This document shows positions 7,087-15,714 of a DNA stretch of 24,000 bases, in pieces. Source of the stretch: Massilia aerilata (GTDB lineage Bacteria; Pseudomonadota; Gammaproteobacteria; Burkholderiales; Burkholderiaceae_D); assembly GCF_042656905.1 (NCBI RefSeq), contig NZ_JBHSMZ010000004.1, positions 570,221-594,220 on the forward strand. Direction: 5' to 3'. The notes under the pieces were generated by a model, which was given only the letters and a program-made list of their open reading frames with translations, made no database searches and was not told where the DNA came from. Position 1 is the stretch's first letter. Each line of letters opens with the position of its first letter. The position numbers and the translations under genes were made by a program.

Positions 7087-7479
7087 TCATTTGCACTTGC
7101 CGCGCACCACGGCCGCCGCCCAGAATGGCAGGGCGAACAGGCCGGCAACGCCGACGACGTAATCCTGTCCGCCGGCTTTCACGACCGTGGTCGGCGATTG
7201 GAATTTCATCGCATCCGGATGCAGGCAGCCCGGCTTTTCGGCTTCCGAAAATGCCCGCTCGAACTTCCGGTAAGCATCCCCGCTCAGCGCCTTGTCCGAA
7301 CGCAGCCTGGGACCGGCCGGCTGTTCGGCCAGTGTTTCGCGCACCGCCTTGCTGATCACCTCGTCGGTCAGGCGCAGGCTGAGCTTGCCCTCGGCCTTGC
7401 GTTCATCGGGCGCCTGCGCCATCGCCTGCCATCCCGCCAGGCACAGGCCCATCGCCGCCATCCAGGTCCACGCTCTCAT
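7087..7479 (-). CDS. Secreted hypothetical protein (signal peptide ...LAGWQAMAQA; hydrophobic C-terminal segment)
   Basis: 130 aa with an N-terminal signal-peptide-like sequence ending AMA-QA. It lies in tandem with the DUF3297 gene. Confidence 0.55.
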   Translation of the reverse strand: MRAWTWMAAMGLCLAGWQAMAQAPDERKAEGKLSLRLTDEVISKAVRETLAEQPAGPRLRSDKALSGDAYRKFERAFSEAEKPGCLHPDAMKFQSPTTVVKAGGQDYVVGVAGLFALPFWAAAVVRGKCK

Positions 7480-8491: not shown

Positions 8492-10792
8492 ATGGGAACC
8501 TATTACGACATCGATCACTGGCGCTCCAGGGTCTTCGCGTCCCTGCTGTCGTACGTGGTCATGCTGGGTACGCTCGCCGCGGTGCCGAGTATCGGCCTCT
8601 CGATCAGCGAGGGCCTGTGGCCGGTCGCCCTGATGGACAGCGTGGCGCTGGCCTGGGTGGCCGTGCTGTGGCGCATGCCGCGCCTGAACTACACCTTCCG
8701 CGTCCTCAACTTCCTCGCGATCCTCTACCTGATCGGCATCGGCCTGATGCTCACGGTCGGTCCGGTCAGCCAGATCTTCCTGATGGCGCTGCCCGTGCTG
8801 GGCGTGGTCCTGCTGGGCATGCGGTCGGCGCTGGCCGCGCTGGGCCTGAGCGGCGCCACCATCTTCGTGCTCGGCCTGACCGGCTATGCCAGGCTGTACG
8901 TCACCGGCATGGAAGAGCATGCGCTGCTGCCCTGCCTGATCGTCACCCTGAACTACCTGTTCGTCGGCGCGCTGATTACCCTGACCTGCGGCAGCCTGCT
9001 GCAGCGCCTCGATAATTCGATGGCGGAGCTGGGCCGCACCGCCGACTCGCTCGAGGAAGGCCACGCCAGGCTGCACGAGCTGAACGCCGAGCTGCGCCTG
9101 ACCTCGGCCGCGGTCGCGCGCCTGAACGACATGGTCCTGATCGCCAGGGTGGTCGACGACGCCGGCGCCGAGCAGCCGATCATCTTCGCCAACGACGCCT
9201 TCGTGCGCCGCACCGGCTACACGCGCGACGAAGTGGTGGGCAGCAGCATGCGCCTGCTGCACGGCCCCGAGACCGACCAGATCGAGGTCGCCCGCATCTT
9301 CGGCGCCATGGCGCGCGGCGAAGCCGCCAAGGCCGAGCTGGTGAACTACACCCGGCGCGGCGAAAAATACTGGGTCGAGATGGAGCTGGTGCCCTTCGCC
9401 GACGAAGGCGGCCGCAACACGCACTGGGTGGTGGTCGGGCGCGACATCACCGAGCGCCGCAACGCCGCCGACGCCATCCACCGCCTCGCGTTCTACGACG
9501 TCCTCACCGGACTGCCGAACCGGCGCCTGCTGATCGAACGCCTGGACGCCATGGTCGCGCGCGCGCACGCGGCGGCCGGACTGGGCGCGGTGCTGTTCAT
9601 CGATCTCGACAACTTCAAGACCATCAACGATGCGCGCGGCCACGCCATCGGCGACAACATGCTCAAGCACGCGGCGCAGCGCGTGGCGGCCGCGCTGCGC
9701 CAGGGCGACACGGTGGCGCGCCTGGGCGGCGACGAATTCGTGGTGGTGCTCGAGAACCTGGGCCCGGACGCGCAGCGCGCGACCTGCGCGGCGCAGGTGG
9801 TGGCGGAGAAGATCCGCGGCGCGCTGGCCGAGCAGGTCGAGATCGGCGGCCAGCTGTATCACGCCTCGGCCAGCATCGGCATCGCGCTGCCGCTGCGCAG
9901 TGGCCAGACCGGCCACGATCTGCTGCGCGAGGCCGATACCGCGATGTACCACGCCAAGGTGGCGGGCCGCAACGGCGTGACCCTGTTCGAAGCCGGCATG
10001 CTGGCCGAGGCGGAGCGCAAGCTGACGCTGGAACGCGACTTCGCCGCCGCGATGGAAAACGGCGAACTGTCGATGTACCTGCAACTGCAGATCGATCACC
10101 TGCGCATGCCGGTGGGCGCCGAGCTGCTGATGCGCTGGCAGCGCCCGGACGGCAGCTTCGTGCCGCCGGACGTCTTCATCCCGGCCGCCGAATCGAGCGG
10201 CCTGATTTATCCGCTCGGCCAGTGGGTGCTGCGCCAGGCCTGCGAATACTGGCTGCGCCTGGACCGCGCCGGCCTGGCGGTGCCGCTGTCGATCAACGTC
10301 AGCCCGCTGCAGTTCCGCCAGCCGGAGTTCGTCGAGCAGGTCTGCGCGGTCCTGGTCGAAACCGGCGCCCCGGCCAGCCAGCTGATCTTCGAAGTGACCG
10401 AGGGCCTGCTGGTGAGCGACCTGAACGAGACCATCGCGCGCATGCACGAACTGGCGCAGATGGGCATCCGCTTCTCGATCGACGATTTCGGCACCGGCTA
10501 TTCGAACCTGGCCTACCTGAAGAAGATGCCGCTGTACGAACTGAAGATCGACAAGAGCTTCATCCGCGACACCCCCGGCGACGTCAACGGCACCGCGATC
10601 GTGCAGTCGATCCTGGCGATGGCCGACCACCTGGGCCTGCGCGTGGTGGCGGAAGGCGTCGAGACCGACCAGCAGGCCAGCTTCCTGGCCGCCAACCGCA
10701 AGCCGGCCATGCAGGGCTTCCTGTTCTCGCGCCCGGCGCCGCTGGAAGAGTTCATGACGCAGATGCGCTCCTGGCGCGCCAGGGCGGCGTAG
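8492..10792 (+). CDS. Membrane-anchored PAS-GGDEF-EAL protein (putative bifunctional diguanylate cyclase/c-di-GMP phosphodiesterase)
   Basis: About 5-6 N-terminal TM helices and a PAS domain at about residues 205-322. The GGDEF domain has an intact RLGGDEFVV. The EAL domain has ELLMRW, SINVS, EVTE, DDFGTGYS, KIDKSF, EGVET and QGF elements. Confidence 0.9.
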   Translation: MGTYYDIDHWRSRVFASLLSYVVMLGTLAAVPSIGLSISEGLWPVALMDSVALAWVAVLWRMPRLNYTFRVLNFLAILYLIGIGLMLTVGPVSQIFLMALPVLGVVLLGMRSALAALGLSGATIFVLGLTGYARLYVTGMEEHALLPCLIVTLNYLFVGALITLTCGSLLQRLDNSMAELGRTADSLEEGHARLHELNAELRLTSAAVARLNDMVLIARVVDDAGAEQPIIFANDAFVRRTGYTRDEVVGSSMRLLHGPETDQIEVARIFGAMARGEAAKAELVNYTRRGEKYWVEMELVPFADEGGRNTHWVVVGRDITERRNAADAIHRLAFYDVLTGLPNRRLLIERLDAMVARAHAAAGLGAVLFIDLDNFKTINDARGHAIGDNMLKHAAQRVAAALRQGDTVARLGGDEFVVVLENLGPDAQRATCAAQVVAEKIRGALAEQVEIGGQLYHASASIGIALPLRSGQTGHDLLREADTAMYHAKVAGRNGVTLFEAGMLAEAERKLTLERDFAAAMENGELSMYLQLQIDHLRMPVGAELLMRWQRPDGSFVPPDVFIPAAESSGLIYPLGQWVLRQACEYWLRLDRAGLAVPLSINVSPLQFRQPEFVEQVCAVLVETGAPASQLIFEVTEGLLVSDLNETIARMHELAQMGIRFSIDDFGTGYSNLAYLKKMPLYELKIDKSFIRDTPGDVNGTAIVQSILAMADHLGLRVVAEGVETDQQASFLAANRKPAMQGFLFSRPAPLEEFMTQMRSWRARAA

Positions 10793-10796
10793 CCGT

Positions 10797-11696
10797 TCAG
10801 GTCCTGACGGCGGCCAGGGCCTGGCGGCCGGCGTCCAGCGTCGGCAGCAGGCGCACGCCGGCCACGCCCTCGAGGCGCGCCACGCCGGCGCCGCCGGCCC
10901 ACAGCTCGACCTCCGGCGGCAAGGCCTGGCGCAGCTGGGCCAGCACGGGCCCCACCTGGCGCCGCGAATAAGCTGCCGAGAAGGACAGGGCCACGATGCC
11001 GGCGCCGTACGCGCTTGCCGCGCGCGCGATGTCGAGCAGCGGCGTTTCGAGGCCGAGCGAGATGCAGTTGGCGCCTTCGAGCGAGAACAGGGCCTCGGCC
11101 ATCAGGAGGCCGAGGCCGTGCCCTTCGCCGGGGACGGTGGTCATCAGGATGCGCGGGCCCTGGCGCGCGGCGGGCAGGTCGGCGATCGCCTGGCGCAGCT
11201 GCTGCTGGGCCGACTCGGTATAGAAATGTTCGTCGAAGACGTCGAAGCTGCCGTCTTCCCAGCACGCGCCGACGGCCGTGGTCAGCGGCGCCATGGTGTG
11301 CTCGACGAAGCGCTCCAGGCCCTGGCGCGCCAGCGACTGGCGCAGCGCGTGGCGGAACACGGCCGGGTCGCGCGCGCGGATCGTTTCCAGCAGGCGGGCG
11401 ATGGCGCCGTTCTGGCCCTCGTCGTCCGCGGCGCGCTGCGGCGCCGCCAGCGCGGCCAGTTCGCCATGCTCCAGCGCGGCCAGCGCGCCGGGCCGGTGGC
11501 CCTGGTCCATCAAGCGCTTCATCAGGCGCAGGCGTTCGACCTGCTCGCCCGGGTAGCAGCGTTCGCCGTTCGCGTCGCGCACCGGCTGCGGGAAGCCGTA
11601 GCGGCGTTCCCAGACCCGCAGCACGTCCTTGGACAGGCGCGTCTCGCGCTCGACGGCGGCGATGCTGAAAGTGGGCGATGTGATGGTGGCGTTCAT
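10797..11696 (-). CDS. CarH/LitR-type MerR-family transcriptional regulator with a cobalamin-binding photoreceptor domain
   Basis: N-terminal MerR HTH FSIAAVERETRLSKDVLRVWERRYGFPQPVRDANGERCYPGEQV. W146-x9-E156-H157 (ACWEDGSFDVFDEH) matches the CarH Wx9EH signature. E191-G-H193-G-L-G196 matches the B12 lower-ligand motif E/DxHxxG, followed by ...LGLETP...SFS...GGAG. It is collinear with Thermus CarH as I remember it. Its ATG overlaps the upstream stop (ATGA at 11693-11696). Confidence 0.85.
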   Translation of the reverse strand: MNATITSPTFSIAAVERETRLSKDVLRVWERRYGFPQPVRDANGERCYPGEQVERLRLMKRLMDQGHRPGALAALEHGELAALAAPQRAADDEGQNGAIARLLETIRARDPAVFRHALRQSLARQGLERFVEHTMAPLTTAVGACWEDGSFDVFDEHFYTESAQQQLRQAIADLPAARQGPRILMTTVPGEGHGLGLLMAEALFSLEGANCISLGLETPLLDIARAASAYGAGIVALSFSAAYSRRQVGPVLAQLRQALPPEVELWAGGAGVARLEGVAGVRLLPTLDAGRQALAAVRT

Positions 11697-12961
11697 GGAA
11701 CAGCCATTCTAGCGCGGCAGAGCAGGGCCGCGCCATCGTAGCGGATCACGGCCAGCAGGCGCCGCAGGTCCTGGTCGAGGCGCCGCTCGGCGCCGGCCAA
11801 GGGCACCAGTTCGGCGATGCGCGCCATGCAGTCGAGCAGGCCGGCCCCGAGCCGGCGCGGCAGGCCGTCCGGGTGGCGCAGGGCGCAGGCCTGGCGCACC
11901 GCCACCAGCAGCGCCGCCGCCACCTGTTCCGTCAGTTCGACCGCGCGCAGGCAATCGCGCGCCGCGATCATGCCGGTGCCGGCCTTGTGGACCACCGCGT
12001 CCGGCGTCAGCCTGAGCGCCTCCGCGGTCCAGGCAGAAACGCTGGCCTGCAGCGCCTTCAGGCCGTGGCCGCCGGCCGCGCTGCGCAGGCCGGGCGGCAG
12101 GCCCTTGCCGGCGCAAGCGTCGGCCACCAGCGCCATCTGCTGTTCGAACAGGTCGGCGAGCTTGGTCACCGCATTCTTCATGCCTTCCATCGCGAACCTC
12201 AGGTGGCCGGCGTGGTCCTGGAAAAGCGGATCGCCGCCGGCGCTGTTCAGTTCCAGTTCGATGTGGCCGATCATCCAGGGCAGGGCGTCCGCCAGGACCC
12301 CGATCACCTGCGGCGCGCAGCGCAGCGGCGCCAGGTCGTGCGGCCGCACGGCGCCCGTCGCCTGGCCGAGGTCGTCGCGGATCCAGCCGGCCGCGCGCAG
12401 CGTGCCGGGGTAGGGCCGGGCCGCGAACAGGGCCTGGTCGAAGTGGGCGGCGTTGGCGTCCAGGGCGACGGCGGCCAGCGCCGCGATGCGGCCGGCCAGC
12501 CTGCACAGGCTTCGCGCGCGCACCGCCGCCAGGCAGGCCAGGCCGGTCATGGCGGCGTCGCGGTCGATCAGTGCCTGGTCCTCGGCGGCCAGCGCCGGCG
12601 GCGCGTCGTCCTCGAGCAGGGCGGCCAGCCGCCGCAGCGCGTCCATGCCGGCGCCGGACCCGCCCTGGCACAGCGAAGCCAGGCGCACCGCGAGGATCGC
12701 GCGGGTCTGCTCCGGCGTGAAAGGCGTGTCCAGGCCGGCGCCGTGCCAGCTGAAGAGCCGCTGCGGCGCATCGCCATCGCCGGCCAGGCGCTTGAGCCGC
12801 GCGGCGCCGGCCTCGATGCGGTCGGCAAAGGCCGGGTCGCCGGACAGTACCGGCCGGGCGCGGCCCGCGGCCAGGGCCTCGATTTCGTCCACGGTGACCG
12901 GGCCGGCGCCAAACACCACGGCGGGCAGGCCGCCGGCCGGGAGGTCGATCTGCATGATCAT
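11693..12961 (-). CDS. Histidine/tyrosine ammonia-lyase-fold protein (TAL position in the pyp cluster), apparently lacking the MIO Ala-Ser-Gly loop
   Basis: 422 aa. These segments align to P. putida HutH (from memory): [51 protein letters not shown] with [71 protein letters not shown] with [20 protein letters not shown]; and NSAGGDPLF with NAVSDNPLVF. No GS(V)GASGDLAPL segment and no YGxNTGFG segment is present. The start was chosen at the ATGA overlap with the pcl stop (12958-12961). The track start at 13417 lies inside pcl. Confidence 0.75.
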   Translation of the reverse strand: [422 protein letters not shown]

Positions 12962-14175
12962 GGGGCGATGCTCCAGTCGGCGGGCTTGCCCAGCATGCCG
13001 CGCGGGATGCGTTCGCCCAGCGTGATCGCCTTCGGGCGCTCCGGCGCGGCCAGTCTGGCGTCGGTCCAGGCGCGCAGTTCCTGGATAAAGCCTTCGCCGG
13101 CGCCGGCGCGCGGCACGATGAAGGCTTTCAGGCGCTGGCCTTCGTCGGGGCGCATCAGGCGCACGGCGGCGTCCTCGACCAGCGGGTGCTCGAGCAGGAC
13201 CTGGCGCACGCGCTCCGGGAAGACGTTGACGCCGCCCACCTGCACCGCGCTGTCGCGGCGCGGACCGAGCGTAAACCGGTCGTCGCCGCACCAGGCCAGG
13301 CTGTCCTGCGGGTGCAGGGCCTGTGCTTCGCCATCGGGGCCGCGGCGCAGCAGCGCATCGCCGGCCCGTTCGATGTGCGGCAGCAGGCGGTAAGGATCGC
13401 GGTGCGAGGCGCGCCAACCCAGGCCGCCGGTCTCGGAAGCGCCATACACCTGGACCAGCGCCAGGCCCGCGGCTTCGGCGCGTTCGGCCACCGCATCGGG
13501 GCAGGGCGCAGTCGAACTGACGCCGGTCACGTCATTGGGGAAGTCCTGGTCCGCGCCCAGCGCCGCCTGCCAGAACTGCGGATGGCCGATCGCCAGGTCG
13601 CCGGGCAGCAGGTGGCGGGCCAGCTGCGACGGCAGGCGCGCGCGCACGCTCAGCACCTGGTCCGCTTCGAGTCCGAGATGGCGCGGCAGCAGCACGCCGA
13701 ACAGGAAACCGTAGATGTGATGCGCCGGCACCGCCAGCAGCAGGCGCCGGCGCCCGCTGAACAGCGTGGCCAGGCTGGCCGCTTCCTGCTCCAGCGTGGC
13801 GAGGGCGTGCGCGCAGCGTTTCGGTTCGCCGGTGCTGCCGGAAGTGCGGAAAGTCAGTTCGGCATCGCGGTGCTGCAGGCCCGCGGTGGCGATGTCGAGC
13901 CAGTCGCCGAGGGTGCGGCGCGCCAGCAGGTAGTCTTCGACGCCGCTGTGCTGCAGCTGCAGGGCCTCGGCCAGCGCGCCCGCCAGCTGCAGCAGCTCGA
14001 GCGAATCGACGCCCAGGTCCTGTTGCAGCGACAGCGAGGGCTTCCAGCCGTCCGGCAGCAGCAGCGGGTCGTGGCGCAGCGCCGCCAGCTCGCCCGCCAC
14101 CAGATCGGCGACGAAGCGCAGCAGGGCGCTGCGGTCGGCCCACCACGGGGCAAGAAGTGCGCTCGGTGCTTGCAT
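12958..14175 (-). CDS. Adenylate-forming enzyme, p-coumarate ligase-like (pCL position), with an N-terminal carrier-protein-like domain
   Basis: 405 aa. AMP-binding core motifs: FRTSGSTGEPK (A3), YGASETGG (A5), RRDSAVQVGGVNVFPERVRQVLLEHPLVEDAAV (A8) and a terminal GKPADW Lys. Residues ~20-90 contain LQQDLGVDSLELLQLAGALAEAL, which resembles a phosphopantetheine-attachment site. The ATG is 4 nt after the pyp stop. Confidence 0.8.
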   Translation of the reverse strand: MQAPSALLAPWWADRSALLRFVADLVAGELAALRHDPLLLPDGWKPSLSLQQDLGVDSLELLQLAGALAEALQLQHSGVEDYLLARRTLGDWLDIATAGLQHRDAELTFRTSGSTGEPKRCAHALATLEQEAASLATLFSGRRRLLLAVPAHHIYGFLFGVLLPRHLGLEADQVLSVRARLPSQLARHLLPGDLAIGHPQFWQAALGADQDFPNDVTGVSSTAPCPDAVAERAEAAGLALVQVYGASETGGLGWRASHRDPYRLLPHIERAGDALLRRGPDGEAQALHPQDSLAWCGDDRFTLGPRRDSAVQVGGVNVFPERVRQVLLEHPLVEDAAVRLMRPDEGQRLKAFIVPRAGAGEGFIQELRAWTDARLAAPERPKAITLGERIPRGMLGKPADWSIAP

Positions 14176-14179
14176 GGGC

Positions 14180-14569
14180 TTACAGGCGCTTCACGAAAAT
14201 CCAGTAGGTGCCGTCGCTGATGGCCTTCTTCATGTGGATTTTTACTTTTGTCGGGGTCATTTTGTAGTCGAACACGTACTCGAACATCGTGTTCAGGTTA
14301 CTCGCGCGCACGCCGGCGTCGAACACGCCCTTGAAGCGCGCGGTGTTGGTGCAGGGCGCGACGTCGCGGAAGAAGTTGGTGCCGATCACGGCGCCGGCGT
14401 GGCGGCCGGTGATGTCGGCTTCGGCCTGATTGTAGCGCAGGACCTTGCCCTGGCCATCGAGCTGGATGGCGCCGAAAGCCAGTTCGTCGATCTGCTTGCC
14501 CGACAGCTGTGACAGCTTGTTGTCGATGTCGTCCTTGCCGAAGGCGATTACGTTGAGGGTAGACAGCAT
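14180..14569 (-). CDS. pyp: Photoactive yellow protein (blue-light PAS photoreceptor, p-coumaroyl-Cys chromophore)
   Basis: 129 aa. It aligns end to end with Halorhodospira halophila PYP as I recall it, at roughly 60% identity by hand count. Examples are [51 protein letters not shown] and YW.FVKR. Pocket residues are conserved: Y46/E50/T54/R56/C73 correspond to Hh Y42/E46/T50/R52/C69. A strong SD (AAGGAG) lies 6 nt upstream. Confidence 0.95.
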
Positions 14570-14607: not shown

Positions 14608-14673
14608 TTTGTCTAGGACAAAGCGCGATTGTATATTACTTTTTGGAAACAATGCTTATTTGTCCTGGACAAA
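14608..14673. promoter_or_regulatory. Dyad-symmetric operator-like array: TTTGTCTAGGACAAA (14608-14622), ATTGT (14628-14632), ACAAT (14649-14653), TTTGTCCTGGACAAA (14659-14673)
   Basis: Read directly in the pyp/gluQ divergent intergenic region. The two 15-bp palindromes are 51 bp apart centre to centre, and the inner half-sites mirror each other about 14640/14641. Possible promoters overlap palindrome A. On the plus strand this is TTGTCT-17-TATATT (14609-14637). On the minus strand it is TAGACA-19-TACAAA (14615 down to 14585). Promoter calls are weak. Confidence 0.45.
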
Positions 14674-14703
14674 GTTTCGACTGTCGCCCTTGGGAGACGC
14701 GGT

Positions 14704-15714
14704 ATGCTAAGGTGGCGCCTTCCCCCATCAACCGAGTTTCCGCAGCGCGCAGTGAGCAGCTTTTCCGCCCCCATACCGACCCCGGCCGCCTCCTATGTCG
14801 GCCGCTTCGCCCCATCCCCGACCGGCCCGCTGCACGCCGGCTCGCTGGTGGCGGCCCTGGCCAGCTACCTGGACGCGCGCGCCAACGGCGGCGCCTGGCT
14901 GATCCGCATCGAAGACATCGACGAGGGCCGCGCCGTGCCGGGCGCCGCCGGCACCATCCTCGAGCAGCTGGACTGGCTGGGCATGCATTCGGACGGCGAG
15001 ATCGTCTGGCAGAGCCGGCGCAAGGACCTTTACCAGGCCGCGCGCGAGCGCATCGCCGACTGGGTCTACGGATGCGGCTGCAACCGCCGGGAGATCGCCG
15101 ATTCGCGCCTGGGCGTGGGGCCGGACGGCGCGGCCATCTATCCGGGCACCTGCCGCCATGGCCTGGCGCCGGGACGCGAGGCGCGCAGCCTGCGCCTGCG
15201 GGTGCCGGAATCGGGCGACGACGCGGTCGGCTTCACCGACCGTTTCGCGGGTTGGCAGGAACAGCGGCTGGCGCTGGAATCGGGCGATTTCGTGCTCAAG
15301 CGGGCGGACGGCTACTGGGCCTACCAGCTGGCGGTGGTCGTCGACGATGCGGAGCAGGGCGTCACCGACGTCGTGCGCGGCGCCGACCTGCTCGATTCGA
15401 CCCCGCGCCAGATCTACCTGCAGCGCCTGCTCGGCGTGCCGACGCCGCGCTACCTGCACGTGCCGGTGGTGCGCAACGCCAACGGCGAAAAGCTGTCCAA
15501 GCAGACCGGGGCGCTGGCCATCTCGCCCGGTCCGCAAGGACGCGATGAAGAGGCCGCCGTCGCGGCCCTGCAACAGGCGGCTGGTTTCCTGGGACTGCGG
15601 CTGGCCTCGCCGGCCCCGTCCATCCGCTCGCTGGCCGCGTTCTGGCAGGAGGCGGTCCCGGCCTGGGCCAGCCTGCTCGCCGAACGCGGCGCCCAGCTAA
15701 GGCTCCCGGACTAG
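14704..15714 (+). CDS. gluQ: Glutamyl-Q tRNA(Asp) synthetase (truncated GluRS paralogue)
   Basis: [16 protein letters not shown] (HIGH-like), [24 protein letters not shown] and KLSKQ (KMSKS-like) motifs, with no anticodon-binding domain. The start is uncertain: ATG at 14704 is preferred, GTG at 14752 is possible, and the track start at 14629 falls in AT-rich intergenic DNA. Confidence 0.85.

Follow-up and report, generated by a model that had tools for sequence, protein, structure and literature searches.

A tyrosine ammonia-lyase derivative predicted to be catalytically dead in the photoactive yellow protein operon of Massilia aerilata, and its intact and excised counterparts in related loci

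The closest described counterparts of the gene reported here are the tyrosine ammonia-lyases (TALs) of the photoactive yellow protein (PYP) operons of Rhodobacter and Halorhodospira, whose genes lie downstream of pyp and of pcl, the latter encoding the PYP-type 4-coumarate-CoA ligase (pCL); the Rhodobacter sphaeroides enzyme (RsTAL; PDB 2O6Y/2O78) serves as structural reference for the fold shared with the histidine and phenylalanine ammonia-lyases (HAL/PAL/TAL). Pseudoenzymes, catalytically dead homologues retained under selection, are a second point of comparison. A third is provided by ergothionase (PDB 6S7J) and histidine betaine trimethylammonia-lyase, which have the same fold without the Ala-Ser-Gly triad, the source of the 4-methylideneimidazole-5-one (MIO) electrophile; in lyases of this type the catalytic Tyr base, the carboxylate site formed by Gln, Arg and Asn, and the loops are all still present (bioRxiv 10.1101/2025.08.13.670108). 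We describe here a gene at positions 11693..12961 (minus strand) of a 24,000-nucleotide stretch of Massilia aerilata DNA (contig NZ_JBHSMZ010000004.1; "the window" hereafter), which occupies the TAL position of a PYP operon. Its 422-aa product has the HAL/PAL/TAL fold and, apart from R214 (the equivalent of RsTAL R303), none of the catalytic elements.

In comparison with RsTAL, the window protein is some 100 residues shorter and lacks the Y60 loop, the A149-S150-G151 MIO triad, N203, Y300, N435/Q436 and the cap; among the residues kept by ergothionase-type lyases, it has the Arg only. With pseudoenzymes it shares the loss of catalytic residues, the retained fold and purifying selection after the loss, this being the combination by which pseudoenzymes are recognized; it differs from them in that the gene has been deleted in sister lineages, and that a non-catalytic function is putative here. 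An intact orthologue from a related locus (P0012; homologous proteins and loci of the comparison are designated by P and L numbers) aligns with RsTAL end to end (E 3.5e-66). No paper joining the terms "ammonia-lyase", "MIO" and "pseudoenzyme" was found in the literature, and a 2025 survey of pyp operons makes no mention of Massilia, MerR, B12 or degenerate TALs (PMC12826048). The novelty lies in a dead TAL derivative documented alongside its intact ancestors and deleted descendants, and not in a new kind of system.

A first-pass annotation of the window, made from the sequence alone, had proposed an ammonia-lyase-fold protein devoid of the MIO triad and of the catalytic Tyr loop. Membership of the family is confirmed by a PF00221 match of 166.8 bits (cut-off 27.3; E 9e-49), with a best stretch at profile positions 177-451 of 466; the seven NCBIfam hutH/TAL/PAL/TAM models all score far under their cut-offs (best, 97.5 bits vs 524). 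The protein was aligned with 27 homologues (alignment A1), eight catalytic motifs were tabulated across 40 sequences, residues were mapped to RsTAL via phmmer alignments with the coordinates confirmed by translation, and gap lengths were measured relative to P0012. The window protein is 67% identical to P0012 over the shared columns and 110 residues shorter, with N- and C-terminal blocks in common.

The missing residues are concentrated in four scars. At scar 1 (12758..12784, minus strand; residues 60-68, AGDGDAPQR) 24 residues have been replaced, including the YGVTTGYG Tyr loop with the catalytic base (RsTAL Y60). At scar 2 (12557..12610, minus strand; residues 118-135) the replacement amounts to 52 residues, comprising the Ala-Ser-Gly MIO loop, a helix, a beta-hairpin and two helices; the gap spans VGASGDLTPL...RPKEAL with the triad, GSVGASGDLTPL lies within the 52-residue deletion, and the N203 equivalent, inside the scar, is now D133. 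The first-pass annotation had placed the linker of this gap correctly and put its size at about 45 residues, which is too small. Scar 3 (12206..12241, minus strand; residues 241-252) combines a change of NDNP to GGDP with an 11-residue deletion of a beta-hairpin and the HAL-F329 equivalent, and scar 4 (11972..12004, minus strand; residues 320-330) is a 9-residue deletion of the STECHNQDK (NQD) loop that carries RsTAL N435/Q436. Furthermore, the former Q-D-x-Y-S-x-R motif (12320..12340, minus strand) reads HDLAPLR at residues 208-214, so that the HAL-Q277 equivalent is H208, Y300 is A211, and R303 is preserved as R214. These substitutions, together with N203 to D and the losses of the F329 hairpin and the NQD loop, are lesions beyond those noted previously. 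The eight motifs hardly vary among the intact enzymes linked to pyp or to aryl-polyene (APE) clusters, and the window protein retains the Arg alone. Judged from its sequence, the protein has the homology and fold of an MIO lyase and none of its further sequence hallmarks, i.e., no Ala-Ser-Gly triad, no Tyr-loop Tyr, no Y300 with N203 and N435/Q436 and no equivalog-level score; with R303 as the sole surviving catalytic residue, it is predicted to be incapable of canonical ammonia-lyase activity, and the earlier claim that p-coumarate cannot be made here by the canonical mechanism stands.

A triad hidden elsewhere in the active site, or an assembly error, would have overturned this picture, and neither was found. 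The only remaining x-Ser-Gly, G101-S102-G103, was rejected as a substitute MIO triad since it aligns with the non-MIO S126-G127 of P0012, a pair that does not vary among the aligned intact enzymes. An artefact of sequencing or assembly that dropped the catalytic segments has no point in its support and can be set aside as having a negligible probability: the identical architecture of 420-422 aa recurs in seven independent assemblies, i.e., the window, the isolate genome of Massilia sp. Bi118 (L001), a separate Logan assembly of the Bi118 reads (L002), and four metagenome contigs from different samples (L085, L086, L088, L091).

The scaffold left behind by the deletions is predicted to fold. 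An AlphaFold2 (AF2) model from a 112-sequence alignment has a predicted local distance difference test (pLDDT) score of 84.8 and a predicted template-modelling score (pTM) of 0.88; the parts modelled with low confidence are the termini and three of the four deletion junctions (residues 64-76, 125-128 and 322-327), with pLDDT below 50 at 64-76. Searched with Foldseek against the PDB, the model finds RsTAL first (query template-modelling score, TMq, 0.78; E 2e-16), followed by HAL, PAL and TAM structures; the top matches are all HAL/PAL/TAL/TAM, with TMq of 0.75-0.79 for the bacterial-size enzymes. The ammonia-lyase fold proposed at first pass is backed by profile, model and structural match alike, and the model joins the orthologue alignment in placing the MIO triad and Tyr loop among the missing parts. 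Compared by secondary structure with an AF2 model of the intact P0012 (pLDDT 87.7), the window protein lacks the equivalents of P0012 residues 64-90 (Tyr-loop strand and small helices), 149-207 (strand, MIO loop, helix, beta-hairpin and two helices), the hairpin 327-336 and the loop 423-434; what it keeps comprises all the long core helices together with the N-terminal alpha/beta unit and the C-terminal helices. In the models, the losses are confined to the active-site cap and the scaffold is foldable.

The gene is also still held in frame. At least 12 indel events can be counted in alignment A1 among more than 12 orthologues, all of them multiples of three, and homology stays in one frame, as the first-pass annotation had stated for the gaps of this protein. 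Pairwise codon analysis was limited to clades younger than the deletions. Under GY94/F3x4 the ratio of nonsynonymous to synonymous substitution rates (dN/dS, omega) is 0.16-0.31, with twice the log-likelihood difference against omega = 1 (2dlnL) at 43-121, and NG86 estimates are 0.35-0.66, with bootstrap 95% intervals all below 1. Shared deletions and dN/dS had been named beforehand as informative checks: the deletions are common to the seven assemblies, and omega is the 0.16-0.31 just given. In the window clade, maximum-likelihood (ML) omega computed with Biopython is 0.15-0.19 for the TAL-derived gene, 0.10 for pcl, 0.10-0.15 for carH (the regulator gene next in the operon) and 0.01-0.03 for pyp. 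The clade whose proteins still bear Ala-Ser-Gly has TAL omega of 0.08-0.11 vs 0.15-0.17 for pcl, the TAL being the tighter of the two. Between these two states, constraint is relaxed about two- to three-fold relative to the neighbours and is still present. Within the Ala-Ser-Gly-bearing TALs omega is 0.34 in catalytic vs 0.22 in non-catalytic segments, a comparison blurred by the variable hairpins that the segment definition takes in.

Selection along the dead gene is strongly uneven. The four scars plus the former Y300 motif have an NG86 omega of 0.90 (individually 1.61 at scar 2, 1.35 at scar 3 and 1.42 at scar 4), vs 0.26-0.55 in the remaining segments (0.37 overall), and dS is alike, 0.26 in the scars vs 0.22 elsewhere. 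The scars therefore provide a neutral benchmark inside the gene, against which the scaffold is clearly under purifying selection at the protein level. The conservation landscape is inverted with respect to the intact enzymes, the former catalytic segments being now the least conserved; per-site conservation in dead vs intact clades gives a Spearman coefficient of about 0, which, the clades differing in depth, is at most a sign of redistributed constraint.

These results bear on two alternatives. The first is a neutral pseudogene whose frame stays open merely through the rarity of stop codons at 75% GC. The GC content of 73-76% along the gene and the long spurious open reading frames (ORFs) in other frames and on the opposite strand agree with it; homology kept in the same frame across at least 12 indels in more than 12 orthologues, omega significantly below 1 by two methods, and constraint that is strongly heterogeneous along the gene at similar dS make it extremely unlikely. 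The earlier suggestion of a decaying gene kept open by high GC thus holds as to decay, which can be followed in a series ending in excision (below), and fails as to the frame, which is held by selection, as seen in the in-frame indels, in omega and in the contrast of neutral scars with scaffold. The second alternative is an enzyme with MIO-independent, ergothionase-like chemistry acting on a substrate with a better leaving group. MIO-less lyases of the HAL fold do exist, 6s7j is among the fold matches and the R303 equivalent is kept, and in this respect the premise of the first-pass annotation that all characterised HAL/PAL/TAL enzymes need MIO had to be corrected; those lyases nevertheless keep the Tyr and the Gln/Arg/Asn. 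With the Tyr loop deleted, Y300 an Ala, the Gln a His, the N435/Q436 loop deleted, the entire cap over the active site gone and the remnants of that site evolving neutrally, we consider such chemistry very unlikely.

Related loci preserve the steps by which this state was reached. The order gluQ-like, pyp, pcl, TAL or TAL-like and carH-like is found at 10 loci (the window, L001, L003, L004, L005, L085, L086, L087, L089 and L090). P0012, P0013, P0015 and P0017 (532-536 aa) have all eight motifs intact, and other intact positional orthologues occur in Massilia sp. IC2-477 (L006) and Massilia sp. UMI-21 (P0024). P0011 has lost the NQD loop and nothing else; P0018, P0019 and P0020 keep Ala-Ser-Gly, and in them Y300, Y60 or the selectivity Tyr is substituted as well, alongside further deletions. 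P0016 (L087, 505 aa) has lost the Tyr loop, its Ala-Ser-Gly has become AGG and its Y300 and R303 are changed, the MIO-loop segment being kept. The MIO loop is lost in P0005-P0010 and P0014 (439-448 aa, including M. norwichensis), and in the window clade the F329 hairpin is lost in addition. Three further proteins, P0021, P0022 and P0100, are N-terminally truncated fragments, with no sign of a frameshift on inspection.

Several details of the intact and partly eroded forms deserve separate mention. The NQD loop is missing from all of the Ala-Ser-Gly-keeping eroded forms, i.e., P0011 and P0018 (L004/L089), P0019 and P0020; in P0018, P0019 and P0020 the altered Tyr is Y300 (now H or D), Y60 (now H) or the selectivity Tyr (now Ser). 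The L004-L089 pair has an omega of 0.08 despite the loss of the NQD loop. As to substrate, the selectivity positions follow a known pattern, His-Leu in TALs, Phe-Leu in PALs and Ser-His in HALs. The intact PYP-linked and APE-linked homologues have Tyr-His (TYHGCGLG) at the positions of RsTAL H89/L90, not the His-Leu of RsTAL; the intact orthologues are accordingly best regarded as putative TALs.

A neighbour-joining tree was built from the neighbouring genes pyp, pcl and carH (823 columns). It recovers the window clade (A) with 100% support, a clade B uniting L087 with the 443-448 aa forms with 100%, and A+B with 99%. The MIO deletions of A and B differ at their 3' boundary, ALIDRD (the counterpart of ALMNGT) being kept in A and not in B. 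Since L087 retains the MIO-loop segment and the boundaries differ between A and B, the MIO loop must have been excised twice, independently.

In other relatives the gene has disappeared altogether. With the pcl product as query, about 42 clusters of pcl were recovered that share 75% identity or more, as against only 22 TAL or TAL-like clusters found for the same clade. Three pcl genes on long contigs without a TAL counterpart were chosen for inspection (L093, L094 and L095, the last from Massilia sp. LXY-6): pyp, pcl and carH are directly adjacent, there is no TAL gene, and synteny is otherwise identical. Remnants of the TAL 3' end at the three junctions identify the excisions as derived deletions. 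L093 groups as the sister of the window clade with 96% bootstrap support, inside A+B (100%), so the form that it lost was already dead. Its breakpoint fuses (A/G)TGATC repeats, joining codons 1-2 with 405-406 in frame, and leaves at 7224..7292 a 22-codon mini-ORF (VIRYDGATLLCRAKMDPPCPPP, then stop), the GTG of which overlaps the pcl stop (GTGA) and the TGA of which overlaps a carH ATG (ATGA); this arrangement suggests that translational coupling into carH has been preserved. The junctions of L094 and L095 differ, and both loci branch near the base of the tree; the excisions were at least two, and probably three, independent events.

The consequences of the loss for the remaining operon genes were examined by a relative-rate comparison with clade B as outgroup and a single TAL-less lineage, L093. 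The dN of L093 is 0.114 for pcl (clade A, 0.118-0.136), 0.048 for pyp (0.051-0.064) and 0.101 for carH (0.094-0.101), so that no faster evolution of pcl, pyp or carH is seen after TAL loss in this one lineage. This excision without a change of rate speaks against the coumarate-binding or chromophore-delivery scaffold suggested at first pass, as do the ligand-contact positions (Y60, the H89 position in the sister forms, the MIO, N203, Y300, N435/Q436), nearly all of which are deleted or substituted and whose remnants are neutral.

The reading that we favour, and for which we hold the chances to be about even, is that the gene is a catalytically dead and still translated relic of the TAL of an ancestral pyp-pcl-tal-carH operon, part-way through recurrent loss. 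An intact TAL would have been trimmed at peripheral elements of its active site by in-frame deletions. Because the gene is translated from a position between pcl and carH and shares an ATGA with each of them, the remainder would be kept in frame and foldable, with frameshifts, nonsense mutations and core-destabilising substitutions selected against. The relic itself would be dispensable and without a new specific function, and its removal would await a rare deletion that preserves the junction, as in L093.

Several observations weigh against this account. The coupling is deduced from the overlaps only, and several orthologues show gaps of 7-13 nt instead. The NG86 omega of the scaffold, 0.26-0.39 in the core helices and termini, is near the 0.20-0.32 of pcl, carH and gluQ, and the constraint exceeds the naive expectation from selection against misfolding alone. 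At least 12 of the lineages sampled carry the dead form, which has outlasted the divergence between species (pcl is about 81% identical between A and B), and the deletion bias of bacteria normally clears useless genes faster than this. Also, the lineages of L094 and L095 probably lost an intact TAL as well, and the loss of a gene in a sister lineage is no proof that it lacked a function. Finally, among the 120 matches listed and the 80 genome loci for the APE-cluster paralogue introduced below, the candidate second TAL, neither Bi118 nor M. norwichensis appears.

Much of the same evidence fits a neofunctionalised or moonlighting pseudoenzyme, in which a helical, probably tetrameric scaffold would be kept by a real non-catalytic role that outlasted catalysis; we consider this possible, if doubtful. 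The scaffold might act as partner or stabiliser for pCL, belong to the PYP/CarH light-response module, or regulate the APE-cluster ammonia-lyase in the manner of a "prozyme". A scaffold omega of 0.37 vs about 0.9 in scars of equal dS would be expected of it, as would low ML omega (0.16-0.31) with strong likelihood-ratio tests, a confidently predicted fold, tight coupling to pcl and carH, retention of the dead form in two deep subclades and many metagenomic lineages, and an MIO loop excised convergently with the scaffold kept; the omega of 0.08 in the L004-L089 pair, without the NQD loop or the catalytic Tyr, further suggests a constraint independent of catalysis. However, the whole gene has been excised in the sister lineage L093 with the rates of pyp, pcl and carH unchanged, which disfavours an indispensable role and leaves room for a minor one. 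Furthermore, the dead clade has no new motif of its own (its conserved blocks at the N and C termini recur in the intact orthologues), and the ligand-contact positions are not conserved among dead forms.

The remaining operon is well preserved. Four genes share one orientation: pyp (14180..14569, minus strand), encoding an intact PYP with Cys69 and the pocket residues present by inspection (TIGR02373, 179.6 bits vs a cut-off of 143); pcl (12958..14175, minus strand; TIGR02372, 337 bits vs 334.7); the TAL-derived gene; and, last in the operon, a gene for a MerR/B12-binding regulator of the CarH type (10797..11696, minus strand). These scores, the adjacency of the co-oriented pyp and PYP-type pcl and the synteny conserved at 10 loci confirm the PYP operon context proposed at first pass. 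The stop of pcl (TGA) and the start of the TAL-derived gene (ATG) share an ATGA at 12958..12961, with a GGAG 9 nt 5' of that start, and the TGA of the TAL-derived gene overlaps the carH-like ATG (ATGA at 11693..11696). The closest relatives of all four genes are from Massilia (Massilia sp. Bi118 and M. norwichensis). By published motif definitions (PMC9304148), the carH-like product has the RxWERRY DNA-recognition motif as LRVWERRYG, an intact Wx9EH motif (CWEDGSFDVFDEH) and the E-x-H-x-x-G lower-ligand motif as GEGHGLG; S-x-S and GG come next, spaced as expected. Its gene is kept at all related loci, the TAL-less ones included, and PYP and a B12-based photoreceptor appear to be co-transcribed.

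Flanking the operon, a gluQ-like tRNA-synt_1c gene (14629..15714, plus strand) is divergent from pyp and syntenic across all related loci of the clade; its relatives are mostly 312-320 aa long (357 aa at L004), which suggests a true start near 14755, downstream of the TTG at 14629. A 766-aa MASE11-PAS-GGDEF-EAL protein is encoded at 8492..10792 (plus strand), convergent with the carH-like gene and ending 5 nt from its end; the gene is present in L001, L003, L090 and L093-L095 and absent from L004 and L089, and a neighbour of this kind is consistent with the reported association of pyp with cyclic di-GMP enzymes. Very long antisense and alternative-frame ORFs span 10.5-14.2 kb, e.g., one of 506 aa at 11873..13393 (plus strand), opposite the TAL-derived gene and pcl; ORFs of this kind are to be expected at 73-76% GC and are not genes. 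A terminator-like hairpin within the TAL-derived gene (12935..12919) was dismissed because the count of terminator-like sites does not exceed that of shuffles, and an Rfam scan of the window for structured RNAs or riboswitches gave zero matches at the gathering threshold.

If the TAL-derived protein makes no p-coumarate, as its sequence predicts, and PYP and pCL are, as seems probable, still functional, then the p-coumarate must come from elsewhere, the two latter genes being intact and constrained and the operon TAL dead; that holo-PYP must obtain its chromophore precursor in another way, as proposed at first pass, is thereby supported. Candidate sources are the environment and an ammonia-lyase paralogue of APE clusters that is common in Massilia. 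TAL is found in just 7 of 113 surveyed pyp operons, from which it follows that an external supply of p-coumarate is usual (PMC12826048). The paralogue (Massilia, Janthinobacterium, Stenotrophomonas; e.g., P0079, L024) belongs to the same family at about 40% identity, has catalytic motifs identical to those of the intact PYP-linked enzymes, is fully intact and has no linkage to pyp; its listed representatives in Massilia, Janthinobacterium and Undibacterium share at least 79% identity. At L024 (1..13494, Massilia sp. Root351), and at L007-L084 generally, its neighbours form a cluster of the aryl-polyene type and comprise a fusion of AMP-ligase and ApeI dehydratase, an O-methyltransferase, GT2, a lipid A-type acyltransferase, a 4HBT thioesterase, LolA-like and DUF3261 proteins and a ketosynthase. 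One homologue of 700 aa, P0032, which matches the APE-type paralogue at 64% identity across 92% of that query, may be a fusion protein.

The public records of these proteins name them tyrosine or histidine ammonia-lyase, and by their sequences neither activity should be possible; through this misannotation, any inference on the PYP chromophore-supply pathway of these Massilia would be wrong. With pyp and pcl strongly constrained while the operon TAL is dismantled or deleted, the supply of p-coumarate should lie outside the operon. The relatives preserve nearly every step from an intact MIO enzyme, through a loop-deleted dead scaffold, to microhomology-mediated excision, and the series carries its own neutral control in the scars vs the scaffold, which makes it suitable for studying the death of an operon-embedded enzyme and for distinguishing an adaptive from a transitional pseudoenzyme stage; the availability of the isolate Massilia sp. 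Bi118 opens the question to experiment. It is rather unlikely, though by no means far-fetched, that the dead scaffold has kept or acquired a non-catalytic job in this light-sensing operon, for example in stabilising or channelling for pCL, in linking PYP and CarH, or as a "prozyme" subunit of the APE-cluster lyase; if it had, the intermediates would record the stepwise conversion of an MIO enzyme into a pseudoenzyme.

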